Virus record (IMG/VR): IMGVR_UViG_3300043015_001816
Location: 1 to 54,546 of that record
Source: a virus
Taxonomy: Duplodnaviria; Caudoviricetes
Length of the DNA: 54,546 nt
Direction: 5' to 3' (one strand)
Shown here: piece by piece, positions 443-25,900 of the stretch
How positions within the stretch are numbered: position 1 is the stretch's first letter
Layout: each line of letters starts with the position of its first letter
The notes under the pieces: model-generated
The model's database searches: none
The model's input: the letters and a program-made list of their open reading frames with translations, nothing else
Told to the model about the DNA's origin: nothing
Position numbers and translations under genes: made by a program

Positions 443-661
443 TTGAAATACATTAGAAAGATATCAGTAGGTGCTGATTACAAAAACGCCATGCACTATA
501 TTGTTGGTCAAGAAGTACTTGGAGGCTCTTATGTTATAAATGACATAAGTCAGGAAAAAAACGGGTATTCCATTTGGGTTAAAAAAGATGGAGAAGTCAT
601 TAAGTGGAAAGAAGTATCCAATATTCCATTAATCATTGAATACAATCTTAACGTATTATGA
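443..661 (+). CDS. Conserved small phage protein (TTG start)
   Basis: A-rich leader; IRKISVG-DYK-AMHY-VGQEV pattern recalled from Bacteroidota phages; ATGA overlap with the next gene. Confidence 0.7.
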   Translation: MKYIRKISVGADYKNAMHYIVGQEVLGGSYVINDISQEKNGYSIWVKKDGEVIKWKEVSNIPLIIEYNLNVL

Positions 662-1203
662 CTCCGAGGTGGAAGTATTTAATATCCCCACAAGGAGAAG
701 AGTACAATAATCACAAAGACTTTGCTGGGGAGTCTTTTATAGTGAACACATCTATAGAAGACGCTAAGTATGTGAACAGAGTTGGAGTTGTTAAAGCATC
801 ACCACTTGATTCTGAGATTCCTATTGGAAGCTTAGTCATTGTTCATCACAATGTATTCAGGACTTACTTAGATATAAAAGGCAATAAAAGAAAAAGTAAT
901 GAATACTTTAGAGACGGATTGTATTTAGTTGATGACAGTAGAATATACATGTATAATGATGGAAGCGGTTGGAAGTGTACTAAAGAATATGTTTTTGTCT
1001 CTCCTGTTAATCACATTCAGGATGATGAGATTCATAGATCAGACAAGAAGGAGGAGGAGCATGTGGGAGTTATAGTGCATGGATCAATATATCATAAAGG
1101 GACTAGAGTTGGATTCACAAAAAACTCGGAGTATGAGTTTGAGATAGAAGATAATAAGATGTATAGAATGCAAGTTAAAGATATTTGTCTTAAATTTATA
1201 TAA
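658..1203 (+). CDS. GroES-like protein with two tandem OB/GroES-type halves
   Basis: Two similar halves (RVGVVKASP...IPIGSLVIV and HVGVIVHG...HKGTRVGF...EIEDNKMYRM) match the GroES beta-barrel pattern. Confidence 0.55.
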   Translation: MTPRWKYLISPQGEEYNNHKDFAGESFIVNTSIEDAKYVNRVGVVKASPLDSEIPIGSLVIVHHNVFRTYLDIKGNKRKSNEYFRDGLYLVDDSRIYMYNDGSGWKCTKEYVFVSPVNHIQDDEIHRSDKKEEEHVGVIVHGSIYHKGTRVGFTKNSEYEFEIEDNKMYRMQVKDICLKFI

Positions 1204-1293
1204 ATGGGAAAGTCATTAAACAGAAGGGGAAAGTATAGCCATTGTACAAGAGCGCAGAAAAATGGTAAGAATAAACCCGCTAAGAAAAAATAA
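1204..1293 (+). CDS. 29-aa basic peptide (not in ORF track)
   Basis: ATG directly after the previous stop; MGKSLNRRGKYSHCTRAQKNGKNKPAKKK. Confidence 0.5.
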   Translation: MGKSLNRRGKYSHCTRAQKNGKNKPAKKK

Positions 1294-1631: not shown

Positions 1632-1906
1632 AAAGAGTTATAAGTGCTGGAGAAAGAGCTGTTGAAGAACTTATAAAGGTTGCTGAAGAAGAAATCATAA
1701 CAGGTAAGCCTGATGATGAGTTAGCCGCTGACAGATTGAAGAATGCTGCGGCAACTAAAAAGCTTGCAATATTTGACGCCTTCGAAATACTACAGAGGAT
1801 AGAGAACGAAAGAGAAAAGCTTAATGGCACGGACGAACCTGAAACAAGTAAAGGAAAAGATAAAGGATTCCAAAGTTTCGCAGAATCTAGGGGAAGACAG
1901 TCTTAG
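1583..1906 (+). CDS. Terminase small subunit (putative)
   Basis: Helical protein directly upstream of TerL; DELAADRLKNAAATKKLAIFDAFEIL motif. Confidence 0.6.
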   Translation: MERDVSKQPSDVRKTIERVISAGERAVEELIKVAEEEIITGKPDDELAADRLKNAAATKKLAIFDAFEILQRIENEREKLNGTDEPETSKGKDKGFQSFAESRGRQS

Positions 1907-4103
1907 CCTTTGTCGCAAATTATCTGACATTGTTCCCGACTCTATTATTAAAAGGAACAATAAACTCAAGAAGTGGGAGTATGGATATAATAAGGATTAT
2001 AACATAATTATTATATCTAAAGATGGAACTTTAGGTGATGTTATTGAGATTCAAAATCTAAAAATAGGATTACCTTTGCAGCCGAAAACTACATACTCAA
2101 GGAGTGAAAAACAATCAGATCAGTATTGGGAACCAAGCGAATATCCAAAAGAACTTCAAAAGATTAAAAGCATTTTTCAATGGAATGAATATCCATCTTC
2201 ATTTAAAGAGTCTTGGATATTATATATTGAATCTGAATTTGAGAAAAGAGAGAATGGTTTTTGGTTTAAGAATAATGGTCATTCTACTTATATTACCGGC
2301 TCTCATTACATGTATCTCCAGTGGACCAAGATTGATGTTGGGCACCCAGAGTTTAGGGAATCAAACAGATTATTCTATATATTCTGGGAGGCATGCAAAG
2401 CTGATATCAGATGCTTTGGAATGTGCTACCTCAAAAACAGACGGTCTGGCTTTAGCTTCATGTCATCATCAGAAGCTGTTAATCAAGCCACCATTACTTC
2501 AGATGCTAGATTCGGCATCTTATCAAAAACAGGCTCTGATGCTAAGAAAATGTTTACAGATAAAGTTGTTCCAATATCCACAAACTATCCATTCTTCTTT
2601 AAACCAATACAAGACGGGATGGACAGGCCAAAGACAGAGCTTGCTTACAGAGTGCCAGCATCAAAGCTTACAAGGAAATCAATCGAGCAATCTAACACCG
2701 AAGATCTTACTGGGCTTGACACCACTATTGATTGGAAGAACACCGGAGATAACTCTTACGATGGCGAGAAGTTGCGACTCCTTGTCCATGATGAGTCTGG
2801 GAAGTGGGAAAGACCCGATAATATCCTCAACAACTGGAGAGTCACTAAAACTTGTCTTCGACTAGGTAGAAAAATTATTGGCAAGTGCATGATGGGATCA
2901 ACATCGAACGCCTTGGATAAGGGAGGGGACAACTTCAAAAAATTATATAGATCTTCTGACGTTACTGATCGTAATTCTAACGGACAAACAAAAAGTGGAA
3001 TGTATAATTTATTTATTCCAATGGAGTGGAATATGGAGGGGTTCATAGACAAGTATGGTCAACCTGTATTTAGGACTCCAGAGATTCCAGTGGAAGGTAT
3101 AGATGGAATGGATATAGATATAGGGGTCGTAGATTATTGGAATAATGAAGTGGAGTCCTTAAAGAACGACGCTGATGCTCTTAATGAATTTTACAGACAG
3201 TTTCCTAGAACAGAGAACCATGCTTTTAGGGACGAGTCTAAAAATACTCTTTATAATTTAAGCAGGATATACGAGCAGATAGATCATAACGATGGAATAG
3301 AAGGCCAAAGAGTTGTCCAAAAAGGAAACTTTTCTTGGAAAGATGGAAGAAAAGATACAGAAGTTATATGGACTCCAAATCCAAAGGGAAAGTTTTATGT
3401 AACATGGATACCTCCATTGGAACTTAGAAATAGAACTATAAATAGAAATGGCATAAAGTATCCTGGAAATGAACATATTGGTGCATTCGGATGTGATAGC
3501 TACGATATCTCTGGAACAGTAGGAGGGGGAGGGTCTAATGGGGCTTTACACGGATTGACTAAAGTTAATTTTGATGGACCATCAAATATGTTTTTTTTGG
3601 AATACATAAGCAGACCGCAGACCGCTGAAATATTTTATGAGGATGTGTTGATGGCGTGTGTATTTTATGGCATGCCAGTACTTGCGGAAAACAACAAACC
3701 AAGATTATTATACCATTTTAAGAACAGAGGATATAGAGGATTTAGTTTATCGAGACCAGATAAACATAAAAACGATTTATCAAAAGCAGAAAAAGAACTA
3801 GGAGGAATACCATCTTCTTCTGCCGTAATATCAATTCATGCCGAAGCTATTGAATCTTATATAGAAAAAAACGTTGGCTTTTCTGATTCTGGGTCTGGCA
3901 ACATGTACTTTACTAGGACTTTACTTGATTGGGCAAACTACGATATAAATAATAGAACTAAGTTTGACGCCACTGTTAGTTCTGGTTTTGCAATTATGGC
4001 TAATAACAAATATGTAAACAAACCACCAAAAACTGTTAAAGAAATAAATGTTACCTTTGCAAAGTACAATAATGGTGGAATAACTAGTACAATACTGAGA
4101 TAG
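1824..4103 (+). CDS. terL: Terminase large subunit
   Basis: Walker A variant KNRRSGFS, Walker B LLVHDESGK, motif III GSTS, RNase H-like nuclease GCDSYD...ENN...FDATV; upstream of portal. Start codon uncertain. Confidence 0.92.
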   Translation: MARTNLKQVKEKIKDSKVSQNLGEDSLSLCRKLSDIVPDSIIKRNNKLKKWEYGYNKDYNIIIISKDGTLGDVIEIQNLKIGLPLQPKTTYSRSEKQSDQYWEPSEYPKELQKIKSIFQWNEYPSSFKESWILYIESEFEKRENGFWFKNNGHSTYITGSHYMYLQWTKIDVGHPEFRESNRLFYIFWEACKADIRCFGMCYLKNRRSGFSFMSSSEAVNQATITSDARFGILSKTGSDAKKMFTDKVVPISTNYPFFFKPIQDGMDRPKTELAYRVPASKLTRKSIEQSNTEDLTGLDTTIDWKNTGDNSYDGEKLRLLVHDESGKWERPDNILNNWRVTKTCLRLGRKIIGKCMMGSTSNALDKGGDNFKKLYRSSDVTDRNSNGQTKSGMYNLFIPMEWNMEGFIDKYGQPVFRTPEIPVEGIDGMDIDIGVVDYWNNEVESLKNDADALNEFYRQFPRTENHAFRDESKNTLYNLSRIYEQIDHNDGIEGQRVVQKGNFSWKDGRKDTEVIWTPNPKGKFYVTWIPPLELRNRTINRNGIKYPGNEHIGAFGCDSYDISGTVGGGGSNGALHGLTKVNFDGPSNMFFLEYISRPQTAEIFYEDVLMACVFYGMPVLAENNKPRLLYHFKNRGYRGFSLSRPDKHKNDLSKAEKELGGIPSSSAVISIHAEAIESYIEKNVGFSDSGSGNMYFTRTLLDWANYDINNRTKFDATVSSGFAIMANNKYVNKPPKTVKEINVTFAKYNNGGITSTILR
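4052..4059 (+). promoter_or_regulatory. Bacteroidota -7 promoter element upstream of portal
   Basis: TACCTTTG matches TAnnTTTG, about 50 nt before the ATG at 4111. Confidence 0.55.
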
Positions 4104-4110
4104 ATAATTT

Positions 4111-6513
4111 ATGAACGGAGTTCAAACAAGGAACGTTGTTGGCTTTCCAGATCAGCTCGCTTCTGATGCTGAAAAAGCATCTAAAGAGTATGGGTTAATT
4201 GTTGCCCGAGCAATAGAATCTGAATGGTTCAGAAAGGAAAGTGGTACATCAAGATTTTATAATAATAGAGATACATATCATAAGCTTAGAACTTATGCTA
4301 TGGGAGAGCAGTCTGTTCAAAAATATAAAGACGAGCTTGCAGTCAATGGGGATATATCGTACTTAAATTTAGATTGGACCCCTGTTCCTGTAATACCTAA
4401 GTTTGTAGACATTGTTGTTAATGGAATGCAAAATAGGCTTTATGATGTAATGGTAGACGCTGTTGATTCATTGTCCTCAAACAAAAAAGCTATGTACAAA
4501 TTAAAACTACAGGCTGAAATGAGGAACAAAGAAGGTCTGCAAGAAATACAAGCAATTACCGGAAAGGATATGTTCGATCAAGATCCTTCGACTCTTCCTC
4601 AAAGCGCAGACGAATTAGAACTTCATCTTCAGTTGAACTACAAAGACGACATTGAGATAGCTCAAGAGAAAGCTATTGAGAATGTTTTGAAGATGAATAA
4701 CTATGAGCAGATTAGAAATAAAGTTGATGAAGATCAAACAACTTTAGGCATCTCTTCCGTCAAACATTCTTTTAATATTCATGACGGGATTAAAGTTGAT
4801 TATGTGGATCCAGCTAATTTAATATGGAGCCCTACAGAAGATCAAGACTTTGAAGATTGCTACTACTTTGGAGAAGTTAAAAATGTAAATATTACGGAGC
4901 TAAAAAAAATAGACCCATCTCTAACCCAAGAAGATATTAAAGAGATATCTAAGATGTCATCTAAATGGGATGCTTATCAAGGAATCAGAGGGGGATATAA
5001 AACAGATAACTTTGATCACAACACAGCAACATTGCTGTACTTCTGTTACAAGACGGATAAGAACATCGTATACAAGAAAAAGAAAACACCTCAAGGAGGA
5101 GAAAAGGTGCTTAAAAAAGACGATCAATTCAACCCACCAAAAACAGAGAAAGCTAGATTTGAAAAACTTTCTAAAAGAATTGACGTATGGTACGAAGGTG
5201 TACTTGTTCTAGGAACAAATCACATTTTAAAATGGGACTTAATGAAGAACATGGTTCGTCCCAAATCATCAATGAGCAAAGCGGTTGCTCCTTATATTGT
5301 AAGTGCTCCAAAAATGTACAGGGGACAAGTGGATTCACTGGTAAAAAGAATGATTCCATTTGCTGATCAAATACAGTTAATACACTTAAAGCTTCAGCAA
5401 GTAACGGCTAAGATGATTCCAGATGGAGTCTATATGGATATTGACGGACTAAGTTCAATTAACCTTGGCAACGGAGCGACTTACACTCCTCAAGAAGCAT
5501 TGAATCTTTATTTCCAAACTGGATCTGTTATAGGTAGATCTTTCACAGAAGAAGGAGAGTTTAATCATGGAAAGATGCCTATTCAAGAATTAACTTCTTC
5601 TGGGGCTAATGCAAAGATATCTTCTTTGATAAATATGTATAACTACAATCTAGGAATGATCAGGTCTGCAACTGGATTAAATGAAGCTAGAGATGGTTCT
5701 ATGCCTGATTCTAATTCTTTAGTTGGAATACAAAAGATGGCTGCCCTTAACTCTAACACTGCTACTAGGCACATACTAAGGTCCGGTTTAAATACCACTA
5801 GAAGATTAGCCGAAGGGATTACTTATAGGATGTCTGACGTATTAGAATATTCACAGTTTAAGGAAGACTTTGCGAAATCAATTGGAAGATACAGCATGGA
5901 GATTTTGAAAGAAATTAAAGATCTTCATCATCATGATTTCGGAATATACATCGAGCTTCATCCTGATGAAGAAGAAAGAGCGGTTCTTGAGCAACACATA
6001 AATACTTCTTTATCACAAGGTAAGATTGACATTGATGATGCTATAGATATCAGAAATGTAAGAAATGTAAAAATAGCCTCTCAACTTTTAAAAGTAAGAA
6101 AGCAAAGCAGAGAAAGAGACGCAAGGAAACAGCAACAAGAAAACATTCAACAACAAGCTGAAGCAAATCAAAGTGCGTCAATGGCTGCTGAGCAAGCCAA
6201 GCAACAAAGGGAGATGGCTAAAAAGCAAGCTGAAATGGAGCTAATGAAAATGGAGTCTGACCTTAAATTGTTAGAGATGGAAAAAGAGTTTGCATTAAAG
6301 CTACGGCTTATACAGGCTCAAAAATCTTTAGAAGGAAATATTCAGGGGATGCAAGTTCAAGGTCAGTTAGCTAAAGAGAAGTATAGAGAAGACAGAAAAG
6401 ACAAAAGGACTGCTAAGCAGGCAACTCAACAATCGAAACTTATTCAACAAAGGCAACAGGACTTAGATCCAATAGACTTTGATGGTCAAGATTTATTAAG
6501 CACTGATTATTAA
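4111..6513 (+). CDS. Portal protein
   Basis: 800 aa after TerL; LNLDWTPVPVIPKFVDIVVNG motif of crAss-like portals; long Q/E/K coiled-coil C-terminal barrel. Confidence 0.88.
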   Translation: MNGVQTRNVVGFPDQLASDAEKASKEYGLIVARAIESEWFRKESGTSRFYNNRDTYHKLRTYAMGEQSVQKYKDELAVNGDISYLNLDWTPVPVIPKFVDIVVNGMQNRLYDVMVDAVDSLSSNKKAMYKLKLQAEMRNKEGLQEIQAITGKDMFDQDPSTLPQSADELELHLQLNYKDDIEIAQEKAIENVLKMNNYEQIRNKVDEDQTTLGISSVKHSFNIHDGIKVDYVDPANLIWSPTEDQDFEDCYYFGEVKNVNITELKKIDPSLTQEDIKEISKMSSKWDAYQGIRGGYKTDNFDHNTATLLYFCYKTDKNIVYKKKKTPQGGEKVLKKDDQFNPPKTEKARFEKLSKRIDVWYEGVLVLGTNHILKWDLMKNMVRPKSSMSKAVAPYIVSAPKMYRGQVDSLVKRMIPFADQIQLIHLKLQQVTAKMIPDGVYMDIDGLSSINLGNGATYTPQEALNLYFQTGSVIGRSFTEEGEFNHGKMPIQELTSSGANAKISSLINMYNYNLGMIRSATGLNEARDGSMPDSNSLVGIQKMAALNSNTATRHILRSGLNTTRRLAEGITYRMSDVLEYSQFKEDFAKSIGRYSMEILKEIKDLHHHDFGIYIELHPDEEERAVLEQHINTSLSQGKIDIDDAIDIRNVRNVKIASQLLKVRKQSRERDARKQQQENIQQQAEANQSASMAAEQAKQQREMAKKQAEMELMKMESDLKLLEMEKEFALKLRLIQAQKSLEGNIQGMQVQGQLAKEKYREDRKDKRTAKQATQQSKLIQQRQQDLDPIDFDGQDLLSTDY

Positions 6514-6569: not shown

Positions 6570-7754
6570 ATGGAAGATTTCAAAGTTTATGCTTTGGATG
6601 ATGAGGGAAACAGAATAGAGACTCAACAGCCTGAAGCAGAACAAACACAAGATGAAGTTCGGGAGCCTAGTCAAGAAATTGCTACGGAAACTGAAAGTTT
6701 AGAAACAAAAAATGAAGATGGGATACTACAGCAAACCGAAGAGCAAACCCAAACCGAAGAGCAAAGCCAAACCGAAGAGCAAGGCCAAGCCGAAACCGAA
6801 GAAAAAATATTAACTGAGGAACCAGATAGAGATGACAATTGGTTTCTGAGTAAATTAAAAGAAAGATACGAAGTGGAGCTAGGCTCCATGGACGATCTTA
6901 AAAACGTTCTTTCAAATACCGAAAAAGAAAGTCTTCCCGAAGACGTTGAGAAGTATTTGCAATACAAGAAAGAGACCGGAAGGTCATTTAGTGATTTTGC
7001 TGAACTTCAAAAAGATTGGGCGTCTGTTTCAGATGCTGATGTAATTCGTCAGTATTACGAGCAAACTAAACCACATTTAGATCGGGGAGACATAGAGCAT
7101 ATTTTAAGTGAACAATTTTCTTATGATGAAGAGTTAGATGATGATAAGGAAGTTAAAGCTAAAAAGATTGCTTATAAAGAAGCATTGTATGAAGCTAGAA
7201 ATCATTTTGAAGGCCTGAAGGAAAAATACAAGGCGCCACTAGAGTCTAGTGAGGCTGATATTCCTGATGCTTACAAAGAGGCGTTTAGCTTTTATGATGA
7301 ATATAAAACTAAATCTGAAAAGGATTCTGTTATTCAGAAAAAACAAGCTTCTCATTTCACTGAGAAAACTAATGCTTTGTTTTCCGAAGAGTTCAAAGGT
7401 TTTGAATTTAACTTGGGAGATTCGAAGAAGGTTTTTAAACCAAGTGATATTGAGAAAGTTAAGTCCGCTCAGAGCAATGTTCAAAATTTTATCTCTCAGC
7501 ATTTGAATGAGGATGGACTTTTAAAAGACCCAGCTGCATATCATCGCTCGTTGTTTACGGCGATGAATCCTGATGCCATAGCAAAACATTTTTATGATCA
7601 GGGAAAAGCAGATGCCACTGGAAATATTATTAAGGAAACTAAAAATATAGACATGGGCGTAAGGGAGAATGTTGTTACCGATACGACGGGGACTAAGTTT
7701 AGAGTGGTAGAATCTGATGATCAGTTTGATTTTAAAATTAGAAAAAGAAACTAA
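6570..7754 (+). CDS. Capsid scaffolding protein (putative)
   Basis: Very acidic, disordered N-terminus, helical; lies between portal and capsid genes. Confidence 0.7.
   Translation: MEDFKVYALDDEGNRIETQQPEAEQTQDEVREPSQEIATETESLETKNEDGILQQTEEQTQTEEQSQTEEQGQAETEEKILTEEPDRDDNWFLSKLKERYEVELGSMDDLKNVLSNTEKESLPEDVEKYLQYKKETGRSFSDFAELQKDWASVSDADVIRQYYEQTKPHLDRGDIEHILSEQFSYDEELDDDKEVKAKKIAYKEALYEARNHFEGLKEKYKAPLESSEADIPDAYKEAFSFYDEYKTKSEKDSVIQKKQASHFTEKTNALFSEEFKGFEFNLGDSKKVFKPSDIEKVKSAQSNVQNFISQHLNEDGLLKDPAAYHRSLFTAMNPDAIAKHFYDQGKADATGNIIKETKNIDMGVRENVVTDTTGTKFRVVESDDQFDFKIRKRN
6652..6702 (+). CDS. Candidate overprinted 16-aa amphipathic peptide (+1 frame of scaffold)
   Basis: ATG..TAG encodes MKFGSLVKKLLRKLKV; A-rich upstream sequence. 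Confidence 0.3.
   Translation: MKFGSLVKKLLRKLKV
6712..6813 (+). CDS. Candidate overprinted 33-aa Lys/Pro-rich peptide (+1 frame of scaffold)
   Basis: gaaacaaaaaATG..TAA encodes MKMGYYSKPKSKPKPKSKAKPKSKAKPKPKKKY. Confidence 0.45.
   Translation: MKMGYYSKPKSKPKPKSKAKPKSKAKPKPKKKY
6732..6785 (+). repeat. 18-bp tandem repeat x3
   Basis: caaaccgaagagcaa(acc/agc/ggc), three copies. Confidence 0.9.
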
Positions 7755-7775: not shown

Positions 7776-9113
7776 ATGTCTGTAACAATGACCGGAGTAG
7801 GTGGAGCTTTAACCCCCTCTCCTTCGAAAGCTACGCTTTCAAGTAATTATCTTGGGTCAAGTATTGAATTTACTTCTCAATACCTTCCCGATGTACACGA
7901 AAAAGAATTTGAAAAATACGGAAATCGTTCTGTATCTTCTTTTCTAAGAATGGTAGGAGCTGAAATGCCTTTTGCCTCTGATGTAATTCAGTGGTCTGAG
8001 CAAGGAAGACTTCACCTAGCTGTAACTGGTGCAACTAGAGCTGCTGATGTAATCACCTCTAATGGACACCCTTTCCGAGTAAACCAAACAGTAATTATTT
8101 CTGACGGAACTGACCAGGAAAAAGCCATCATAACTGCGACAACCACAAATACATTTACAGTTGCCTCTTATGAGAATGCGAATCTTGCAGCAGCTATTGC
8201 CACAACTGGCCTTAGTGTATTTGCTTTTGGTTCTGAATTCAAAAAAGGAACTAATGGAATGTCTGGAAGTCTAGAGGCTCCTAAAGATATCCAAACCAAT
8301 AACCCAATTATTATCAAAGATAAATATGAAGTTAATGGTTCTGACTTAGCTCAGATCGGATGGATTGAGGTGACTACTGAAAATGGCGCTACTGGATATC
8401 TATGGTATTTGAAATCAGAGCATGAAACTCGTTTGCGTTTTGAAGATTACCTAGAACTTTCTTTGGTGGAAGGTAGACCTGCTGCAACCTCTTCTGGTGC
8501 TGAAGGAGCTGGATACAAAGGAACTAAAGGTTTGTTCTATGAAATCGAAAACAGAGGTAACATTGCTACTGGTTCAATTCAAGCTAGAACTGACATTGAA
8601 GAACTAATTAAAGTTCTAGATAAAGAAGGAGCTATTCAAGAAAACGTCATGTTCGTTAACAGAACTAAATCTTTCGAGATTGATACTGTTTTGGCTGCTC
8701 AAAATAACTCTGGTGCTTCTACTGCATCTTATGGTTTGTTTGACAACGACGAAAGCATGGCCTTAAATCTTGGATTTATGGGCTTTAACTTGGGATATGA
8801 TTTCTACAAGTCTGATTGGAAATATTTGAATGACGCTACTACAGGAGCTTTAACTGCTGGTGTAGACGGAGTTATTGTACCTGCTGGTACCACCACTATT
8901 TACGATCAAATTCTAGGGAAGAACGCTACTCGTCCTTTCTTACATGTAAAATATCGCAAGTCAGAAGCTGAAGACAGAAAGTATAAGTCTTGGGTAGTTG
9001 GATCCGCTGGAGGAGCTGGAATGTCTAGCGACTTGGATGCAATGCAAGTACACTTCTTGTCTGAGCGTGCACTATGTGTGCTTGGCGCTAACAACTTTAT
9101 CTTGATGAAGTAG
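7776..9113 (+). CDS. Major capsid protein
   Basis: 445 aa after scaffold; QYLPD..EKEFEKYGNRS and WSEQGRLH motifs; biased codon usage; followed by a strong hairpin. Confidence 0.88.
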   Translation: MSVTMTGVGGALTPSPSKATLSSNYLGSSIEFTSQYLPDVHEKEFEKYGNRSVSSFLRMVGAEMPFASDVIQWSEQGRLHLAVTGATRAADVITSNGHPFRVNQTVIISDGTDQEKAIITATTTNTFTVASYENANLAAAIATTGLSVFAFGSEFKKGTNGMSGSLEAPKDIQTNNPIIIKDKYEVNGSDLAQIGWIEVTTENGATGYLWYLKSEHETRLRFEDYLELSLVEGRPAATSSGAEGAGYKGTKGLFYEIENRGNIATGSIQARTDIEELIKVLDKEGAIQENVMFVNRTKSFEIDTVLAAQNNSGASTASYGLFDNDESMALNLGFMGFNLGYDFYKSDWKYLNDATTGALTAGVDGVIVPAGTTTIYDQILGKNATRPFLHVKYRKSEAEDRKYKSWVVGSAGGAGMSSDLDAMQVHFLSERALCVLGANNFILMK

Positions 9114-10701: not shown

Positions 10702-11559
10702 ATGGCCTTAACTGATCAACAATATTATTCCTCGGCAGACAATTATGGTGGCTCACAATTTGTGTCTCTTAAAAATATTATAAACAACTTCTATCTGTTT
10801 TATGTAGGAGATGAAAAGTTAATTAATAATGTTAGTAGGTTTGATGTTGTCTTTCATGCTAAAAGGGCTGTTCAAGAATTAAACTATGATGCCCTAAGAA
10901 ATGTAAAAGCATTAGAGCTGGAGCTTCCAAATACTTTGCAGCTTGTTCTTCCAAAAGATTTCGTTAATCTAGTTAGATTGTCTTGGGTAGATGAAAGGGG
11001 AAGGTTGCATCCTTTAATGGTTGACAACAACACTACAATCGCTAAAGCATATCTTCAAGATAATAACTATAACATTTTGTTTGATAGTAATGGGGTAGCC
11101 CTAGAGGGAAATTCTTATATAGAGGATAAGCTATCTCAAATTGAAAATACAACTCAAGATGCGGTATCATCTTTAAGTGATGAGTTTTTTGGAGGAAGGT
11201 TTGGATTGGATCCTTCAATATCTAATGTTAATGGAAGATACAATATAGACAAAGCAGCTGGTGTTATAAGGTTTAGCTCTGAAGTAAAAGGCAAATATGT
11301 TGTTATTGAATATATAACAGATGGATTGGATTATTTAACTGAAGATGAAATACAGATAAACAAGCTGGCAGAAGACTACATGTATAAGCAAATAGCATAC
11401 GAAGTTATCAAGCATAAGTTTAATATTCAAGAATACGTTGTTCGTAGAATTAAAAACGAAGCGTATGCTTCGATGAAAAACATGAAAATCCGTTTAATGG
11501 ACATCCATCCTTTCGATTTAATTCAAACATTGAAGGGAAGAAACAAATGGATTAAATAA
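10702..11559 (+). CDS. Second tail ring/structural protein
   Basis: DVVFHAKRAVQELNYD, LPKDFVN and EYITDG motifs; directly upstream of the muzzle gene. Confidence 0.7.
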   Translation: MALTDQQYYSSADNYGGSQFVSLKNIINNFYLFYVGDEKLINNVSRFDVVFHAKRAVQELNYDALRNVKALELELPNTLQLVLPKDFVNLVRLSWVDERGRLHPLMVDNNTTIAKAYLQDNNYNILFDSNGVALEGNSYIEDKLSQIENTTQDAVSSLSDEFFGGRFGLDPSISNVNGRYNIDKAAGVIRFSSEVKGKYVVIEYITDGLDYLTEDEIQINKLAEDYMYKQIAYEVIKHKFNIQEYVVRRIKNEAYASMKNMKIRLMDIHPFDLIQTLKGRNKWIK

Positions 11560-14500
11560 TGAAGTTTAAAAATATCTTTAGTTCTGGAAAAATGAACAAA
11601 GACCTCGATGAACGACTTGTTCAGAAGGGTGAGTATCGTGATGCATTAAATCTTAAAGTTTCTAATTCAACTGGATCCGACGTAGGGTCTGTTGAAAATG
11701 AAATGTCCAATGCTGTGCTCACAAATCTTAATATGGGCACCAATGCTGTATGTATAGGTTCAGTTGCAGATGATGCAAACAATATGATATATTGGTTTGT
11801 TAGATCAGAAACGGGAAGTTATATATGTGAGTATGATGTTGACAATGATTCTTCAGAATTTGTTTTACTTGACACTAGGACTGGAAAGAACAATGTTCTA
11901 AACTTTACAAAGACAAACTTTATTGAGGGTAATGTTTTAATAGACATAGATAATAATAAAAAGTTTTTGTTTTTTACGGATGGCATTAACCCGCCGAGAA
12001 GAATTGAAGTAAACTCTGCAAAACTTATAGATGGGAATGATTTTGACAAATATGATATAGATGTTGTTCAGAAGCCGCCCTTATACCCTCCGTCGATAAC
12101 ACTACAATCAGCGTCTAATGCAGAGAATAGTATAGAGGAAAGGTTCTTATATTTTTCATATCGCTATAAATATAAGCATGGTGAATATTCAGCCATATCT
12201 CCTTTTTCAGAGCCTGCGTTTTTTCCAAAAACTTTTTCAATAGACTTTACCTCTGGGCTAAACAAATCCATGGTAAACAATTATGGGAGCGTCGATGTTT
12301 CATTTGACACTGGAGCAAAGAATGTTACAGATGTTGAAATAATATTCAAGGAGAGTAATTCAAGTACTCTGTATGTTGCAGAATCTTTTAACAAAGAGGA
12401 TAAGAGCTGGTCAAACAGTCAAACACAAACATTTACTTTTGATAATTCAAAAATATACAAAGTCCTTCCAGAGAAAGAGCTTCTTAGGGTTTATGATAAT
12501 GTTCCTTTAAAAGCTAAAACTCAACAACTAATAGGCAATAGAATTGTTTATGGCAACTATGTTGAGAACTTTAATCTAGTTAATGCTAATGGAGAAAATA
12601 TAAAGCCTAACATTTCTGCCGCTCTATCTGCAAGCACAATAACTTCAGCTCCAGTAAAAAGTGTTAAGTCAAACAAAGACTATGAGATTGGTCTGGTTTA
12701 TTTAGATGATTATGGCAGATCAACAACTGTTGTAACTTCAGAGGGAAATTCTGTAAACGTTCCTTTGGGTAGTCAAAAACTACAAAATGAACTAACAATT
12801 ACTATCGACCACTTCCCCCCAGCTTTTGCAAAAAAGTATAGGGTTTATGTGAAGCAAAGTAAGGGTGATTATGAATCAATATCTCCTGCTATATTCTATG
12901 AAGAAGAAGAGACTGGATATGTTTATGTTCAGTTAAATGGAAATGATAAGAATAAAATTAAAGAAGGCGATTTCTTAGTTGTTAAAGCAGACAGTAGGGG
13001 AGCTAAAACTGGTCTTATTGAAACTCAAGTTTTAGAAATTAAGGAATACAATGTTAACTTTTTAGAAGACAGTACATATCCAGGAGCGGGGGACCCTCCA
13101 ATTGCACAACAAGCTGGACTATATGCTAAGTTTAAGCCAAGTGGATATAGTCTCTCTACCTCTGATTACGATAGAACAGAGCATACAGACTACGATGATT
13201 CAAGTAACGGAAGGGACAATCCATTAGGCATAAGCTTTTCGTCTTCTTCTGTTGAAGGTCCGTTTTATTATGGAACAAATGGAAGTGTTACCGATGTTAC
13301 TATTGGTGGGACATATAATATAGCACAGGAATTTGCAAGAGTAAGAATAGAAATTGACGGAATAAATGTTGATGTAAACGGAGACGGGTCATTGATTGTG
13401 GATACTTTCCAATGGTCGGTTGATACATTAGACAATGATGCCACAAACACTTTAAATGCGACTGGAATTACAATAACTCCGGGAACGCCAATTGCTTTGA
13501 CTGGATCTGGATTAACTATAGATTTTGCTGCTGCAACTGGACATACGCTTGGAGACAGATGGATGTTTAATGCAAGACCATCTTCTGTTACCAATAAATA
13601 TACAGGGTTAAGATTTAGTAAGGCATTTTCTACATTTAGAAGCTTCAGTAAAGAAGAAGAGGAAATTAATCTTGGAACGATAATAAACATAACCTATGAC
13701 GAATATAATAGGGCAAATCAGTATGTTACACACGAATTTGTTTCAAATCAACGATACGAAAACTTAGAAGAATGGTACCATGAAAGTGGGGCTAAAGCTA
13801 CAATAGGAAATGATATCACAGAGGAAAGAATATTCTTTCTTAGAGGAACATACGGAGATGTTCAGTCAAACATAACCGGAGATCCTAACGACGATCTTTT
13901 AATGATCATTAGATCTAACTTCACACAAGAAGGTGATGCATCAAAAAGAGTTAAGGTTAACAATAATATAGTTTTGTTGTCTAGAACTAGTGACGACATA
14001 ATTAATTTTGAAACTAAACCAGAAAATATAAATTCAGAAATATTCTACGAGCTACCAGCAACGTATGAAATAAATAGTCAGGGATACCACGATGTTCCTG
14101 GAGGTGGAACTGCTCAGACTGATAGCAACGCAGCTACATTCACTATACCTTTCTTTAATTGTTTTTCTTGGGGCAACTGTGTTGAGTCGTATAAAATAAA
14201 AGATGACTTTAATGCTAAGTATTTTGAGCCAGAAAATAGGCCCTCTTCGAATTTAAAAGATTATAAGCAGAACAATAGGACCACATCATTGACTTACAGC
14301 AATGTCTATGATCAAACAACTAAGTATAATGGGCTAAATGAATTTAACCTTTCAACTGTCAATTACAAAGATATGGATGACTTCTATGGAAGCATCAATA
14401 AGATTGTAGGAAGAGAGGCTGACTTAGTTGTATTCCAGGAGAATAGGGTTTCTAAATTATTATTCAACAAGAATGTTCTTTTCAATGCTGACGGAAGTGG

Positions 14501-17500
14501 AAATGTTGCTGCATCAACAGATATATTAGGGCAGGTTTTACCATATCTTGGAGAGTATGGAATCACTGCAAATCCTTTTTCTGTGGTAATATGGGGAGGG
14601 AGAATATATTTTGTAGACGAAAGAAGGAGAGTTGTATGTCGATTGTCACAAGATGGAATTACTCAGATCTCTGATTATGGAATGATAGACTGGTTTGGTG
14701 ACAACTTAAAGATTACTCCAGATGTGATAGGCGGATACGATCCAATGGATAGAACTTATTCCATAGCACTTAGAGGAAGCCAAGAAGAGTGGAGAGAAGA
14801 TGAAGTTGAATGTGAAATATTGTACGACAGCACTGACACTGATAGCGACGGAACAGTTGACTCTATTGACACAGATGATGATGACGATATCGTTCCAGAT
14901 GTTAATGACGCATTCCCATTAGACTCAACAGAAGCAACTGACACGGATGGCGATGGAGTCGGGGACAACACAGATACTGACGACGATGGAGATGGAGTGC
15001 CAGATGCAAACGATGCATTCCCCCTAGATGAAACTGAATCTGTTGATACAGATGGAGACGGCATCGGCGATAACGCCGACACTGACGATGACGGGGATGG
15101 AGTACCAGATATTGATGAGGGAGACATGGATAGTGACGGAATAGATGACAACAACGACACCGACACTGATGGGGATGGAACATTAAACGTTGATGATTTA
15201 GACGATGACAATGACGGAGTTCCCGATGTAAGTGATGCATTCCCAACAGATCCAGACGAAACATTAGATACCGACGAAGATGGAATTGGCAATAATACAG
15301 ACACCGACGATGACGATGACGGTGTTCTTGATGTTAAAGATGACTTCCCCTTAGATCCCAATGAAAATACTGACACCGATGATGATGGCATAGGTGACAA
15401 TGCTGATCCAGATGATGACGGGGATGGAGTACCAGATATTGACGATGTGTTTCCTCTTGATTCTACAGAAGATACGGATACCGATAACGATGGTCTAGGA
15501 GATAATATAGATCCAGATGATGACGGAGATGGAATAGCTGATGTTAATGAGGGAGATACAGATGGAGACGGGACTCCAGACGATACGGATACAGATGATG
15601 ATAACGATGGAGTCCTTGACATAAACGACGACTTCCCATTAGATTCCTCTGAAACCACCGATACGGATGGTGATGGCATAGGGGATAATGCGGATACAGA
15701 TGACGATGGTGATGGTGTGCCAGATGTCAACGATGCGTTCCCATTAGACTCAACCGAAACAGTAGATACTGACAGTGACGGCATTGGCAATAATTCTGAT
15801 ACGGATGATGATAACGATGGAGTTCTGGATGTTGATGACGCATTTCCTTTAGATTCTTCAGAAACCACTGACACGGACGGAGATGGAACTGGCGATAACG
15901 CTGACACAGATGATGATAACGATGGAATATTAGACGTTGATGATGCGTTTCCTTTAGATCCAACAGACACAATTGATACTGATGGCGATGGTGTGGGTAA
16001 CAATACCGATACCGATGACGATGGAGACGGAGTTCTTGATGTAGATGATGATTTCCCACTAGACCCAACAGAGACAACCGACACTGATGGCGATGGTATT
16101 GGAGATAACACTGATACTGATGATGATAACGATGGAGTTCTTGATGTAGATGATGCGTTCCCGCTTGATGCAACGGAGACAGCTGACACAGATGGGGATG
16201 GAATAGGGAATAACACAGATACGGATGACGATGGCGATGGCGCATTAGACGTTGATGATGCGTTTCCTCTTGATGCTACAGAAAGTGTAGATACAGACGG
16301 GGACGGAACTGGAAATAATGCAGACACAGACGACGATAATGATGGAGTGTTAGACGTTGATGATGCATTTCCATTAGACGCTAGTGAATCGGTAGATACT
16401 GATGGCGATGGTATTGGAGATAACACTGATACTGACGATGATGGCGATGGCGTATTAGACACAGAAGACGCCGATCCATTGGACGCTAATGTAACTAAAA
16501 TCTCCCCAACAATAACATTTAATAATCAAACAGTAACTTACGGAGACTCTGACTTTGTAGTTAGTGCCTCATCTAATTCGGCAGGAGCTATAACTTATTC
16601 TTCTTCGGATACAGGGGTGGCTACCATATCTGGAGACATTGTAGCAATACAAGGAGCCGGAAGCACCACTGTAACTGCAAATCAAGTTGCGGATGGAATA
16701 TATTTGTCTGGATCACAGACAATGACGCTTACAGTTCAAAAAGCAAGTCCGACTATTACATTCTCTAACCTTTCTGCTACTTATGGAGATCCAAATATTA
16801 CACTTACGGCAGCATCAAATAGCACCGGAGCTATAACATACTCCTCTTTAGATCCTTCTGTTTCAACAATTTCTGGAAACACACTTACAATACTAGGGGC
16901 TGGATCGGATACTGTAACAGCTTCTCAAGTGGCAGACTCTAATTATTTATCTGGTAGCAGAAGCGTAAATTTAACAGTTGCCAAGGCGTCTCCAACAATA
17001 GTTTTCCCTGACATTACATCTTACGCAAATAGTCCAGATTTTACATTAAGCCCAACGTCTAACAGTACAGGTGCTTTTACCTTTACGTCTTCAGATGTTT
17101 CTGTAGCTACAATATCTGGATCTACAGTAACTATGGTTGCTCAAGGAACTTCTACGTTAACAGCATCTCAAGCAGCTAATTCAAATTATCTTGCTGGGTC
17201 ACAGACCGCTTTGTTAACTGTAAATGCAGCCTCTGTGGACACAGACGGAGATGGTACGCCAGACATTACAGATACCGATGACGACAATGATGGAGTATTA
17301 GACGTCAACGATGCGTTCCCATTGGATGCAACAGAAAGTGTTGATACTGATGAAGATGGAATAGGCAATAATGCGGACACTGATGATGACGGAGATGGAG
17401 TTAGTGATTCACAGGAAGCCACAGATGGAACAGATCCGCTTGATGCAGATAGTGATGGAGACGGGATAGTAGATTCCGTTGATCCAGAGCCTCTAGTTTC

Positions 17501-22961: not shown

Positions 22962-25900
22962 ATGGACGAAGAAAATATCATTTCAGATTCAACTTTAGAT
23001 CCAGGAACAGAGCAAGATAAAAGTGTAATTCCTGAAGTAAATGACGATGCTTTACAGTTAGCATATAATGATGCGTTTGACAATGGCTTTGTTGGAGACA
23101 AACAAAAGTTCTATCAAGTTCTTTGTGAAAACGAACAAGCACAAAATTGGTCTTATGAGTCCGCTCAGCTTGATGGATATAATGGATCTCTCGAAGACTT
23201 TAAAAACCTTCTCGGGATAGATGTTGCTGTTTCTAAAGTGGATCAAGAAGAGCCTGAAGTAAAAAAAAAAGATATACTTGGTCCGCTTTCGGAAGAAGAT
23301 TCGAAATTATTATCACTCGAGTCTGAGTTTACCGATTCAGACGTTAACTTTAGCGTAGATAAAGCAGCAAGATACCAGGAGGAATACAGAAAAGCTGAGT
23401 TAAAAAAAGCAACTGAAGAGCTAAGACAGATCCGTCCAGATATAGACTGGGAGAAGTCTAAAGATGAATATTACGGAGTCGACATGGCTCCAGAACTCAC
23501 TGCCACCACAGAGTATAAGGATGTAACAGACATATCTGCAGGAGAAATAAAAGCTAGAGAAGAAAAGGCTAAAATTTTCCAAGAATATAAAGAAGGAAAA
23601 AGAGAACTTACTCCACAGCAATCATTAGTGAACACCCTCTATAATCAAATGGGAAGGTTGGCCACTATTGATGACACTTATAGATACTTATACGGAATTG
23701 CAACAAATGACTTAGAGCAAGTCGGTATTGCAAAGGCTGAATTAGACAGGATAGAATCCTATGCTGCCCCAGTAGCAGAGTTTACGGAAGACGCTAACTT
23801 AATTGAAAATCCAGGAATGTTTGCGGCTGCGGTAGCTGATGGCTTTGCTGGGTTCGCAACGTCTTATGCAATCATGAGAGCTATTCCCGGACCCGGACGT
23901 TTTGGTAAATTAGTTGGTGAAGTAACGCTTGGAAGTGAAATGATTGCTAGATCAATCAAGTCATACAACGAAGAAAAAGCTAAAGCAAACGGAAAGACAG
24001 TTGAGGACCTTCATGCAGATGGAGAGTTCGATGTTGCTATGCCCGCAATGATGGGTTATTTTGAGTACAGGCTTGAGAAGCTTGGTCTTACTGGGGTTGG
24101 TGCAGCTATAACTAAACTTGGAAGCAAGGGCTACTCAAAGCTTGCTAAGTTACTGACCTTTGGTTCATCTCAAATGAAAGAAGGAGGAACTGAATATGGA
24201 CAGAATATTCTTGAAGATGTAAATAAATACATTGCCAGAATTGACACCCCTGAAAATATAGAAAAATACAAAGACAATCCCGTTGCTCTTTACAATAAAA
24301 TTGGAGAAGAGTTTGTTAGATCAGCTCAATCGAGAGAATCAAGAGAGGCTTTATATAAGGGAATAGCTGGTGGGGCTGGAGGAACTATTGTTGGAACCTC
24401 TTATAACAAGGTCATGGCTGCGACTAAAAACAAAGATCAGGTCAAAGCACAAGAGGATCTTGTTGATACGATGCTAGATCTAGAGGGCATGCAAAGAAAC
24501 AAGAACCTAAGCGACTCAGACAGAGAGGTAATTAAAACCGCCCAAGACGCTGCACTTGAGGAGTTAAAAAAGATACAAGCGGAGGCGGAAGAAAATGTAT
24601 CATCTTTAAATGAACAGCAAGTAAACGAAATTGTAAAGCTCCGTGAAGAACAGGTGTCTTTAAATAATCAACTATGGAATGTAGAGAACTCTGAAAATTT
24701 AACAAGAGAACAAAAGGACAAGGTTATAGAGTCTCTTGAGAAAAAGTTCAAGGATAATGTTTCTAGGGTTAGGCAGATACAAAAAGAATCAATAGATTCT
24801 AAGGAGGCAGAAGAAAAGGTGGCGACAGAACAAGAAGCTCCGGCCGCACCAGAGCAAGTTCTAACTGAAGAAGAACAATTGCTTCCCCTCAAGGACGAGC
24901 AAGGGTCTACATTTGAATCGCCAGAGGGATCTCAGAGGTTTATCATAGGAGGTAGACAAAGAACTATTGCATTAGTAGATGCTTCCGGAAAACTAATAGG
25001 CGCTTTTGATTCCAAAACTGGGGAAAAAAGGAAGACTACGAAGTCATCAGAAGATGAACTGATTAAACAGTTCAATTATGACGCCGGAAAGTCAGCTTTT
25101 GAAGGCGTTGAAACTACAGAAAGGGATGATGTAAACGAAATCGTAGCTAATGAAAGTCAAAATCCTAAAGAGGTTGCTGTAGCTTTTATGCAGGAAAAAG
25201 AAAAGGGGCCTGAAGATAGTGGAGCTTCTCAATTACTTACCAACTTAAGGGAGGATGGACAAAGGTTCAGCCTTGAATCTTTGCTTAGACATGCAGGATT
25301 CACCCCTAAACAAGAAGGCTTGTTCCCCAGCGGAGAGTTCACCCCAAGAGAATTAAGAAGACTTAAAATTCAGCTAAATAAAAACTATCCAGGCATATTA
25401 AAATGGGTTGCCAAAGATAAGAAGGATACTAACATAGAAGATGTTTCCCGAGATAATTATGGCGTAGAACCTGATGATGTTTTTCAAGCAATTAAAGGGA
25501 AAAGCCCTGTTCCTAATAAAGTATCGGTAACAGAAGCAAATTTAAAAGAAAGATTTAAAGAGCTAACCGGTCTTCAGGGAACTGATGATCAAATTCAAAG
25601 GGTAGCGGAGCAAGATCCAGCACAACTAATGTCTCCTAGAGTTCCTGTTGATGTTGAACAGGAGCTGTCTGAAAGGATGGAGGAAGAGCGAATCGAAATG
25701 GAGTATGCGGACAGACAAGGTATAGACACCGAGGAAGGAGCTGAGAACACAAAAAGGTCTTTAAAAACTTGGTTTAATGAACTCCGGGCAAGGATTGGAC
25801 TTGACCCAAAGAGAGGTAATGTTGCGGTTAGAAACCTACAGGAAAGGCTGAAAGGCGGTATGGAGAGTGGAAAATATGAAGCATACACTAGATTTGAAAG

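Follow-up and report, generated by a model that had tools for sequence, protein, structure and literature searches.

In phage lambda, Rz1 is embedded in Rz in the +1 frame, and the products of these two-component spanin genes work together. The candidate gene described here is similar to Rz1 in being small and complete, with its own start and stop, and in being nested entirely within a larger phage gene and read in the +1 frame; it differs in its location in the head module, not in lysis, and in that its product would be a soluble polycation instead of a signal-sequence lipoprotein. There is no sequence relationship between the two systems, and a start signal of the Shine-Dalgarno type is not expected at the present locus.

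P22 gp8 and T7 gp9 are phage scaffolding proteins. The gene which hosts the embedded frame resembles theirs in its position between portal and capsid genes and in coding for a helical protein with a flexible acidic part, although neither by sequence nor by fold could the protein be matched to one of solved structure. Small basic DNA-condensing proteins, mostly Arg-rich, include adenovirus mu and VII, baculovirus P6.9, the protamines and the histone H1 tail; to our knowledge, none is known in tailed phages. The embedded peptide shares with them a short, low-complexity, very basic sequence with interspersed Ser and Pro, and, like the viral condensers, it would be made late together with capsid components. 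In the open-access library searched, nothing relevant was found on a Lys-rich overlapping gene in a phage scaffold gene or on polycationic capsid peptides.

Finally, viral overprinted genes arise as a new frame in an existing gene and have products of skewed composition. The present overlap likewise falls where the older protein is disordered and of low complexity. It is set apart in that the old frame largely dictates the composition of the new one (Glu/Gln giving Lys), in that selection is visible almost only at the silent sites of the old frame, and in how very short the ORF is (20-33 codons).

The host gene and its embedded frame

The window, i.e. the whole stretch of DNA analysed (54,546 nucleotides), contains the following features at and around the locus:

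1824-4103: large terminase gene, upstream of the portal and host genes
4111-6513, plus strand: portal gene (phrog_6547, E 1.3e-144)
6570-7754, plus strand: host gene of 394 aa, scaffold-like by position (phrog_16786, function unknown)
6671-6967, minus strand: antisense ORF of 98 aa with a TTG start, from the ORF list of the window
6700-6711, plus strand: +1-frame stop TAG (6700-6702), then a 9-nt A-rich leader, AAACAAAAA, abutting the ATG
6712-6813, plus strand: embedded +1-frame ORF, 33 codons and TAA, for a Lys/Ser/Pro-rich peptide of net charge +15
6732-6794, plus strand: 18-bp tandem repeat, 3.5 copies, 93% matches (Tandem Repeats Finder)
7776-9113, plus strand: capsid-like virion structural gene (phrog_13704, E 7.6e-107)

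The host protein consists of a conserved N-terminal 20 aa, a disordered acidic tail (aa 19-84) and a helical body, and its predicted model has a mean pLDDT of 68, with values below 50 for residues 19-84. The embedded ORF overlaps host aa 48-82, inside the disordered tail. The first-pass annotation had named this gene a scaffold, a name which stands as far as gene order between the portal and capsid-like genes, the helical model and the partial, acidic disorder are concerned, but which finds no echo in the function of phrog_16786 or in Pfam, PHROGs, PDB or Foldseek searches, none of which linked the protein to known scaffolds by sequence or fold. Pfam gave no match, the best hit of the PDB profile search was an unrelated protein (E 0.043), and Foldseek returned nothing at E 0.001 or better when the model was compared with the PDB. 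The homologues in Cellulophaga phage phi38:1 and in Flavobacterium elemo phages are annotated merely as 'structural protein'.

The embedded ORF runs from ATG to TAA wholly within the host gene, at an offset of 142 nt (6712-6570), and its coordinates, A-rich leader and exact peptide had been correctly read in the first-pass annotation. A run of six A residues lies immediately 5' of the ATG, and the start codon is unpaired in the predicted fold (81-nt MFE -7.7 kcal/mol, z -0.83). A second in-frame ATG, at 6718, matches the M-x-Y start of the homologues in the alignment. The 18-bp repeat makes up most of the ORF body; the main frame reads it as Q-T-E-E-Q-x and the +1 frame as K-P-K-S-K-x, as had also been reported. 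Its copy number differs in L084, a 96% relative, where 11 codons fewer are found and both products stay in frame.

Taken by itself, the window gives an ORF no better than chance, since the main-frame protein forces both the open frame and the lysines. The probability of a +1 stop by any synonymous choice is 0 at all 33 codons, a +1 ATG is created by synonymous choice with a probability of 0.62 at N48 and 0.66 at D50, and 69% of 1000 synonymous resamplings yield a +1 ATG ORF of at least 33 aa. Codon choice in the window is skewed inside the ORF: C-ending codons occupy 7/9 four-fold sites, compared with 0/10 just upstream and 13/95 in the remainder of the gene, and the wobble base of Glu, Gln and Lys codons is 15 A : 0 G before A or G and 0 A : 4 G before C.

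The frame and its codons in the homologues

The homologue set comprises 85 unique sequences in 19 clusters, drawn from 160 of about 440 relatives detected. Clusters were formed by single linkage (one of them holds 35 sequences) and tested with one representative each; they are not fully independent, several having N-terminal sequence in common, and between them synonymous sites have almost reached saturation, with a codon identity of 0.525 where chance would give 0.455. A Lys/Ser-rich +1 ORF of 20-33 aa is found at the same spot in 13/19 clusters and 59/85 unique sequences, and also in one further distant lineage. The first-pass annotation had proposed a comparison with shuffled controls, and +1 ORFs turned out to be commoner in homologues than in these: a +1 ATG ORF of at least 18 aa is present here in 39/57 homologues, for 23.1 expected from codon-resampled controls. 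Moreover, when 84 loci (434 kb) were scanned in all six frames, 56 ORFs of this kind turned up, every one at this spot.

The ORF is missing in 6/19 clusters, and two genomes carry the codon signature described below with a broken ORF (a stop after 11 codons in L042, loss of the ATG in L054); the frame is therefore dispensable. None of the cultured phages in the collection searched carries it, and three cultured or named relatives have neither the ORF nor the codon bias. Going by the contigs, phages of the carrier type are nevertheless common. In the flanks (1.5-3 kb) of ORF-less homologues, no stand-alone equivalent gene was found beside the scaffold gene.

Evidence for selection on the +1 frame comes from the silent sites of the host gene. 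In the 13 clusters with the ORF, four-fold sites inside it are C-ending in 48/89 cases and T-ending in 1/89, compared with 1/115 and 40/115 in the adjoining upstream acidic stretch and 116/1217 and 550/1217 in the remainder of the gene. The C-ending excess, observed in 12/12 clusters of the first set, has a Fisher-combined p of 8e-17 against upstream and rest together and of 1e-8 against upstream only. Because the low-complexity N-terminus aligns poorly and makes an alignment scan noisy, the profile was anchored on the +1 ATG and stop: C-ending codons amount to 0-14% over the 30 codons before the ATG (0-5% in the five nearest bins), 38-75% inside the ORF and 0-4% over the first 15 codons past the stop. 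In the alignment-based scan for synonymous conservation, the peak at the start motif had a ratio of 1.6-1.8, no higher than several other peaks of the gene.

The wobble position of Glu, Gln and Lys codons depends on the nucleotide which follows. Inside the ORF, the count is 157 A : 3 G before A or G, a choice which gives Lys over Arg in the +1 frame (upstream 110:25, rest 500:243), and 6 A : 45 G before C, which gives Ser over Asn (upstream 46:15); against upstream, p is 1e-6 and 5e-12, respectively, and the pattern is alike in each cluster. Furthermore, in synonymous resampling conditioned on an open ORF, hydrophobic residues fall under the null mean in 13/13 clusters (combined p 7e-11) and Pro is enriched (p 2e-9). 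Inside the ORF, codons vary most at main-frame position 1, the wobble position of the +1 frame, and in the gene remainder at position 3, each in 4/4 groups. Other tests were null or mixed: Asp and Asn codons show no shift inside the ORF (16 T : 13 C, 378:247 in the rest), depletion of Gln and His in the +1 peptide is not significant under synonymous resampling (p 0.85), and where residues are identical, their codons agree more often in the ORF than upstream in just 2/4 groups.

The hypotheses on C-ending codons and on Lys over Arg were formed on the same family on which they were then tested. In a replication with 27 new unique sequences from another collection, which overlaps the same clusters, all 20 sequences with the ORF had C-ending fractions of 0.29-0.71 inside and 0-0.09 upstream, and the seven ORF-less ones had 0-0.04, bar one at 0.25.

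These data bear on the reading of the ORF as a compositional by-product, according to which a Glu/Gln-rich stretch is Lys-rich and stop-free in the +1 frame, GAT or AAT followed by a codon starting with G makes an ATG, and nothing is translated or selected. The resampling results in the window, the patchy distribution of the ORF (cultured relatives, L042 and L054 included) and the K+R content, equal to the synonymous null in 13/13 clusters, all agree with it, and the caveat that E/Q-rich sequence gives Lys-rich +1 frames by default thus holds for lysine. However, it leaves unexplained why rare C-ending codons accumulate only between the +1 ATG and stop, why the wobble preference flips with the next nucleotide and why hydrophobic residues are in deficit. 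The true default can be seen in the six ORF-less clusters, where C-ending codons occupy only 12/135 four-fold sites of the same acidic region and the +1 frames give Lys together with Phe, Leu, Arg, Asn and Cys. The by-product reading is, on these grounds, quite unlikely.

A constraint on the nucleic acid itself, or repeat dynamics, would also touch silent sites: the T-free, C-enriched tract could be a DNA or RNA element, or slippage could homogenise a unit of the GAAGAGCAAGCC type, the +1 frame being open since the tract is T-free. The tandem repeat of the window and its varying copy number in L084 fit this explanation, as do the 30%-68% of ORF bases which lie in 8-mers repeated within the acidic region and the 9-mers AAGAGCAAG and GAAGAGCAA, present in 10/13 and 9/13 clusters. 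Nevertheless, when all sites in such repeated 8-mers are masked, the bias remains (C 28/52, T 0/52, p 2e-16; wobble before C 2 A : 12 G, p 4e-5); the non-repetitive ORFs of L019, L014 and L022 show the biases too, and no motif is common to all clusters. C-ending codons raise G-C pairing and would therefore be of no service to an unstructured RNA, and the 5' boundary of the tract is an ATG preceded by an A-enriched leader. All this makes such a constraint very unlikely.

As regards the other frames, the +2 frame has stops in 9/13 clusters, and the antisense frame whose codons coincide with the main ones has them in 8/13. Across the ORF span, two antisense frames lack stops in 11/13 and 10/13 clusters, one of them including the 98-aa ORF of the window, and avoidance of T on the sense strand could serve to keep them open. 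In the 98-aa frame, however, the biased base is the wobble position, and protein selection there would therefore not favour rare G-ending codons; the other open frame has stops in 2/13 clusters and no ORF with a start listed in the window. Moreover, the boundaries of the bias are the +1 ATG and stop, and the antisense products would be rich in Leu, Phe, Cys and Ser. A selected antisense frame is hardly credible.

As judged from codon choice, then, the +1 reading is under selection in the 13 clusters, within limits set by the +1 start and stop. A complete ORF in another frame inside a gene, retained in relatives beyond the codon-shuffled expectation, with second-frame selection at the silent sites of the first, is what an overprinted gene presents, some sub-tests being null or mixed in this case, and 6712-6813 is probably a genuine overprinted gene for a polycationic micro-protein. 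The overprinting put forward in the first-pass annotation thus finds its support in the silent-site choices of relatives, the open frame of the window proving nothing by itself. The lysines would come free from the Glu/Gln-rich main frame, and the other traits of the peptide would be held by selection at host silent sites, which would favour Lys and not Arg, Ser and not Asn, and Pro, Ala and Ser over Leu and Phe, and would exclude acidic residues.

Start context and initiation

Upstream of the ATG, A is frequent among the 13 representatives (9/13 at -3, 12/13 at -5, 11/13 at -8, 10/13 at -13 and 10/13 at -14), and 78% of four-fold sites in the five codons before it are A-ending. The gene starts of the window itself are A-rich and carry no Shine-Dalgarno signal, in agreement with the A-rich starts without Shine-Dalgarno which are described for Bacteroidetes by Baez et al. 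2019 (PMC6847099).

We infer that the embedded ORF is translated by internal initiation. A subset of ribosomes on the late mRNA of the scaffold-like gene would initiate at the internal AUG at 6712 or 6718, in an unpaired A-rich stretch which corresponds to the start signal type of Bacteroidia, without Shine-Dalgarno pairing; they would read 31-33 codons in the +1 frame and release a polycation rich in Lys, Ser, Pro and Tyr. A single late mRNA would in this way yield both products. Ribosomes may start poorly at a site 142 nt into a frame which is itself heavily translated.

The six-A run just before the ATG in the window and the A-rich runs of homologues would also suit ribosomes which leave the scaffold frame by a +1 shift or by slipping on the A run, so that the first ~47 scaffold residues would be fused to a basic tail. 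Against this, many clusters have a +1 stop only 0-4 codons ahead of the ATG (TAG abuts the ATG in L013, L015 and L018, and lies three codons before it in the window, with 9 nt between), so close that there is no room for a shift site; in addition, all 59 signature-bearing ORFs have their ATG, a count which is ascertained, as the definition of having the ORF requires an ATG. A frameshift product is highly improbable.

The putative peptide and its possible role

The 44 distinct peptides of the family contain 47% Lys, 1.2% Arg and almost no Leu or Phe. Their length is 20-33 aa and their net charge +8 to +15 (+11 to +13 in 40/44); Tyr occupies position 3 in 34/44, and mean column identity is 51%. 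The peptide matched no family in PHROGs and nothing in a PDB profile search; 13 peptides gave nothing above the cut-off in Pfam (one sub-threshold match, E 0.5). It is absent from a collection of 15 billion proteins and has never been called as a protein, and a protein-atlas search for look-alikes returned just unnamed clusters below 0.9. A complex predicted for the peptide and scaffold residues 1-120 scored 0.00 in a run without controls and counts neither way.

With the DNA condensers the peptide has in common a very basic, low-complexity sequence, but neither the Arg-rich composition of protamines nor the [ST]PKK motifs or linker-histone domain of H1. Because Arg makes up so little of the family, with Arg codons actively avoided, the earlier label 'protamine-like' does not fit; 'H1-like' describes a resemblance of composition only, [ST]PKK being present in 2/44 distinct peptides, without regularity, and Pfam and PDB giving no match. 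DNA binding and compaction, and presence with the genome in the particle, belong to the condensers and are putative for the peptide.

A further possibility is that translation occurs but has no function: an accessible AUG in an A-rich context would be unavoidable for Bacteroidia ribosomes, and selection would just keep the product soluble and harmless. The selected features are indeed mostly avoidances (no Leu or Phe, no acidic residues), the sequence turns over freely, as the number and low column identity of the peptides indicate, and the ORF can be lost, as in L042 and L054. Baez et al. 2019 (PMC6847099) report that in Bacteroidetes selection acts against stray AUGs in the neighbourhood of start sites. 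On the other hand, the cheapest cure, a silent GAT-to-GAC change removing the ATG, is found in no signature-bearing sequence, and elsewhere 0/22 conserved Asp/Asn columns are 100% T-ending, which is the sole outside yardstick for ATG retention. Furthermore, it is not obvious how preferring Lys to Arg (157:3) or Ser to Asn (45:6) would detoxify the product, and the band of length and charge is narrow, with Tyr so often at position 3. Translation without function is, in sum, unlikely.

As to what a functional peptide would do, it might bind polyanions during head assembly, first the acidic disordered tail of the scaffold-like protein and then possibly the packaged DNA, a role which is speculative and rather doubtful. 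The suggestion of the first-pass annotation that it could condense DNA or neutralise charge in the head is likewise conjectural. Less likely still would be a charge-matched pair encoded by the same ~100 nt, in which the peptide would enter the procapsid on the scaffold tail and stay as a DNA counter-ion once the scaffold exits. Such a pair, if true, would give tailed phages their first protamine-like system, and expansion or contraction of the repeat, as in L084, would automatically keep both charges balanced.

From a practical point of view, a Lys-rich +1 frame in an acidic gene is uninformative by itself; what informs is a frame with Lys but no Arg, Leu or Phe, in which the host gene uses its rare C-ending codons just as far as the ORF extends. 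Should the peptide be real, the locus would show cleanly, in nature, how one frame sets the bulk composition of the other while selection works via silent sites only, and it would therefore be useful for methods which seek overlapping genes and micro-proteins. An entire clade of marine podophages, uncultured and related to phages of Flavobacteriia, would then have a gene missed by gene callers, and whether some tailed phages pair a peptide polycation with an acidic scaffold would become a testable question.

The embedded frame and its putative scaffold gene

The embedded ORF reported in the first-pass annotation was confirmed in the window sequence. It occupies the +1 frame of a scaffold-like host gene, whose own frame is referred to as the main frame.

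Features at and around the embedded ORF
1824..4103: large terminase, first in the gene order (terminase, portal, host gene, capsid-like gene)
4111..6513: portal, directly before the host gene
6570..7754 (+): host gene, 394 aa, phrog_16786 (a family without assigned function)
6700..6702 (+): +1-frame TAG; AAACAAAAA comes next
6712..6813 (+): embedded ORF, +1 frame of 6570..7754, ATG to TAA, 33 codons, encoding MKMGYYSKPKSKPKPKSKAKPKSKAKPKPKKKY
6718 (+): alternative in-frame ATG of the embedded ORF
6732..6794: 18-bp tandem repeat, 3.5 copies, 93% matches, making up most of the ORF body
7776..9113: capsid-like structural gene, after the host gene

Since the host protein gave no match in Pfam, PDB and fold searches, and its phrog has no function attached, it is termed a putative scaffold only from its position and shape. 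Its AlphaFold model is disordered over residues 19-84 (pLDDT < 50) and helical from residue 89 on; the overlap with the embedded ORF covers residues 48-82, within the disordered acidic tail. The record is linear, with a completeness estimate of 85%, and is podovirus-like, at 54.5 kb; it contains three very long plus-strand ORFs (11559..19277, 2572 aa; 22962..28319, 1785 aa; 48571..52881, 1436 aa). It also carries a GroEL-like chaperonin gene (42616..44208, +; phrog_5725, E 1e-139) and, far from it in the record, a GroES-like co-chaperonin gene (658..1203, +; phrog_13932, E 9e-16).

Taken alone, the window sequence is no proof of a gene. When it was resampled synonymously in 1000 trials, with the protein fixed and codon usage as in the phage itself, 69% of them contained a +1 ATG ORF of at least 33 aa. 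At none of the 33 codons could a synonymous change introduce a +1 stop, and a chance +1 ATG has a probability of 0.62 at Asn48 and 0.66 at Asp50. The caveat in the first-pass annotation, namely that Glu/Gln-rich sequence yields a Lys-rich +1 frame by default, was thus right for the open frame and the lysines.

Occurrence in homologous loci

Homologues of the host gene were taken from the best 80 of 251 relatives in viral contigs (57 unique sequences including the window, after one locus without a start codon was dropped and identical N-termini were merged) and from the best 80 of 190 relatives in metagenome contigs, of which 61 passed an N-terminal motif filter and 27 were new unique sequences. 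Nineteen loci (L143-L161), including more distant ones failing the filter, were checked by hand, and L157 was added. The final set comprises 85 unique sequences, grouped by single linkage into 19 clusters (80% identity, conserved C-terminal domain). Synonymous codon identity between the 17 clusters of the first set is near saturation (0.525 vs 0.455 by chance); the value inside the largest cluster, 0.62-0.73, leaves its members only partly independent, and one representative per cluster was therefore used in the main tests. The independence of the clusters is limited by N-terminal sequence common to several of them, and the codon hypotheses were formed on the same family in which they were tested.

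Against codon-shuffled controls, +1 ATG ORFs of at least 18 aa starting in the acidic region were commoner in the first set, with 39 of 57 vs 23.1 expected from synonymous resampling; these 39 include two (L051 and L052) that are not Lys-rich and were later set aside. In the final set, a Lys-rich ORF was found in 59/85 sequences and 13/19 clusters, and it is present too in a distant lineage of 39-42% identity. The 44 distinct peptides are 20-33 aa long (median 26), with a net charge of +8 to +15 (median +12), and usually start with M-[P/A/S/T]-Y. They contain 47% K, 19% S, 8% Y, 7% P and 1.2% R, and no more than 0.2% each of E, L and F. The +1 frames of the six ORF-less clusters represent the true default, in which Lys is mixed with Phe, Leu, Arg, Asn and Cys. 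A six-frame scan of 84 loci (434 kb) gave 56 Lys-rich, non-hydrophobic ATG ORFs, every one at this spot.

In L084, a 96% relative of the window, the repeat array at the scaffold N-terminus is 11 codons shorter; acidic tail and embedded peptide shorten together (21 aa vs 33), with both frames preserved. In the window, the same Lys-rich, non-hydrophobic filter is passed by the embedded ORF and by a stand-alone ORF at 1204..1293 (+; 29 aa, at least 35% K+R, few hydrophobic residues), whose start adjoins the stop of the GroES-like gene and which terminates ahead of the following ORF (1310). A basic 38-aa ORF at 47532..47648 (+), packed tightly among small plus-strand genes (47290..48153), starts with M-P-Y-S-K, recalling the M-P-Y of many embedded peptides, but has hydrophobic and acidic residues.

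Signs of selection at silent sites

Codon choice at silent sites of the host gene ("rest" denotes its remainder outside the ORF and the upstream acidic stretch)
Four-fold sites inside the +1 ORF (13 cluster representatives): C-ending 48/89, T-ending 1/89
Four-fold sites in the acidic stretch just upstream (13 cluster representatives): C-ending 1/115, T-ending 40/115
Four-fold sites in the rest of the gene (13 cluster representatives): C-ending 116/1217, T-ending 550/1217
Glu/Gln/Lys wobble before A or G (A:G): ORF 157:3, upstream 110:25, rest 500:243; +1 Lys, not Arg
Glu/Gln/Lys wobble before C (A:G): ORF 6:45, upstream 46:15, rest 103:67; +1 Ser, not Asn

The excess of C-ending codons in the ORF (Fisher-combined p 8e-17 vs everything else, 1e-8 vs the upstream stretch only) is accompanied by a depletion of T (p 4e-10). 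GCC makes up 95% of Ala codons in the ORF, compared with 11% in the upstream stretch and 10% in the rest; the corresponding shares are 86%, 4% and 9% for ACC among Thr codons, and 1%, 42% and 49% for GTT among Val codons. With sequences anchored at the +1 start and stop codons, a sharp change appears: C-ending codons amount to 0-14% over the 30 codons before the +1 ATG (0-5% in the five nearest bins), 38-75% inside the ORF and 0-4% over the first 15 codons past the +1 stop. In the +1 reading, these sites lead to Pro, Ala, Ser or Thr when they hold C and to Leu, Phe, Ile or Val when they hold T, and GGA leads to an acidic residue. The requirement for an open frame cannot create the C bias: a +1 stop arises only with T at main position 2 followed by A or G at position 3. 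Against synonymous resamplings in which the ORF had to stay open, hydrophobic residues in the real sequences lie below the null mean in 13/13 clusters (combined p 7e-11) and Pro is enriched (p 2e-9), with K+R the same as in the null.

The Glu/Gln/Lys wobble differs between ORF and upstream stretch both before A/G (p 1e-6) and before C (p 5e-12), uniformly from cluster to cluster. This flip with the next base, confined to the interval between +1 start and stop, we cannot explain otherwise than by the identity of the +1 codon. Moreover, the most variable codon position in the ORF is main-frame position 1, the +1 wobble, in 4/4 groups; outside the ORF, position 3 varies most, in 4/4 groups for the rest of the gene and in 3/4 for the upstream stretch.

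In the same acidic region of the six clusters without the ORF, C-ending codons are at background (12/135), and neither ORF nor codon bias was found in Flavobacterium phage elemoA gp30, Cellulophaga phage phi38:1 gp092 or the homologue in an uncultured podovirus record. The 20 new sequences with the ORF in the replication set all have C-ending fractions of 0.29-0.71 inside vs 0-0.09 upstream; the seven without the ORF have 0-0.04, except for one Val-Pro-Glu repeat sequence (0.25). Slippage of repeat units is not sufficient, since the signals outlast the removal of every site within an 8-mer repeated in the acidic region: four-fold sites in the ORF remain at C 28/52 and T 0/52 (p 2e-16), before-C wobble at 2 A : 12 G (p 4e-5) and before-A/G wobble at 39:2 (p 0.045).

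As to other frames, stops occur in 9/13 clusters in the +2 frame, in 8/13 in the antisense frame in codon register and in 2/13 in the remaining antisense frame, for which no window ORF with a start is listed. In the window, the embedded ORF is overlapped by an antisense ORF of 98 aa that starts with TTG (6671..6967, -). Its richness in Ser, Cys and Val is what the strand opposite a Glu-rich gene would be expected to give; coding is unsupported, the biased base falling at the wobble position of this antisense ORF.

The evidence is weakened by several measures. Asp/Asn codons in the ORF show no shift (16 T : 13 C), Gln/His depletion in the peptides lacks significance (p 0.85), identical residues share their codon more often in the ORF than upstream in only 2/4 groups, and an alignment-based scan peaks at the start motif, yet no higher than elsewhere in the gene. 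The ATG is kept in 59/59 sequences, a figure ascertained by the definition of carrying the ORF; as a yardstick, T-ending codons make up 36-92% of the 22 conserved Asp/Asn columns in these sequences, none of which (0/22) ends in T throughout. No silent loss of the ATG was found among signature-bearing sequences.

The embedded ORF is dispensable, being absent in six clusters, truncated in L042 and ATG-less in L054. In these two relatives of L053/L115, a main-frame Gln-to-Lys change brings a +1 stop after 11 codons (L042) and a main-frame Val-to-Leu change abolishes the ATG (L054); the remainder of each broken ORF keeps the codon signature.

Translation start and possible role

In many clusters the ATG is preceded by a +1 stop at a distance of 0-4 codons, and in three the stop directly adjoins it. 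This disfavours frameshifting into the +1 frame and favours internal initiation; the peptide would then be made from an AUG within the host gene. A is enriched over the 15 nt leading up to the ATG, silent sites included (78% A among four-fold sites of codons -5 to -1), and the predicted fold leaves the AUG unpaired. Across the first-ATG contexts of 50 window ORFs of at least 100 aa, no G-rich Shine-Dalgarno signal was found (G at most 0.26 anywhere from -24 to -1), and A peaks at -17, -13, -11, -5 and -3. This pattern fits a Bacteroidia-type host; the hosts of cultured relatives are Flavobacteriia. According to Baez et al. (2019, PMC6847099), Bacteroidetes do not use Shine-Dalgarno sequences, and A at -3, -6, -12 and -13 promotes initiation in them.

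Judged from codon choice across relatives, the embedded ORF is probably an overlapping gene that is translated and under selection; both its family and its host gene would be new, and a search of open-access papers found nothing similar. The first-pass reading of an H1/protamine-like peptide overprinted in the scaffold gene is partly supported. The overprinting is supported, and a marked preference for Lys over Arg sets the peptide apart from protamines. Its packaging with DNA as a putative counter-ion appears unlikely. The ORF belongs to the head module, where a polycation is encoded opposite a polyanionic disordered tail. In Rz/Rz1, the product of an embedded gene acts together with that of its host gene; by analogy, it may tentatively be proposed that the peptide binds polyanions in head assembly, namely the scaffold tail and perhaps then DNA.
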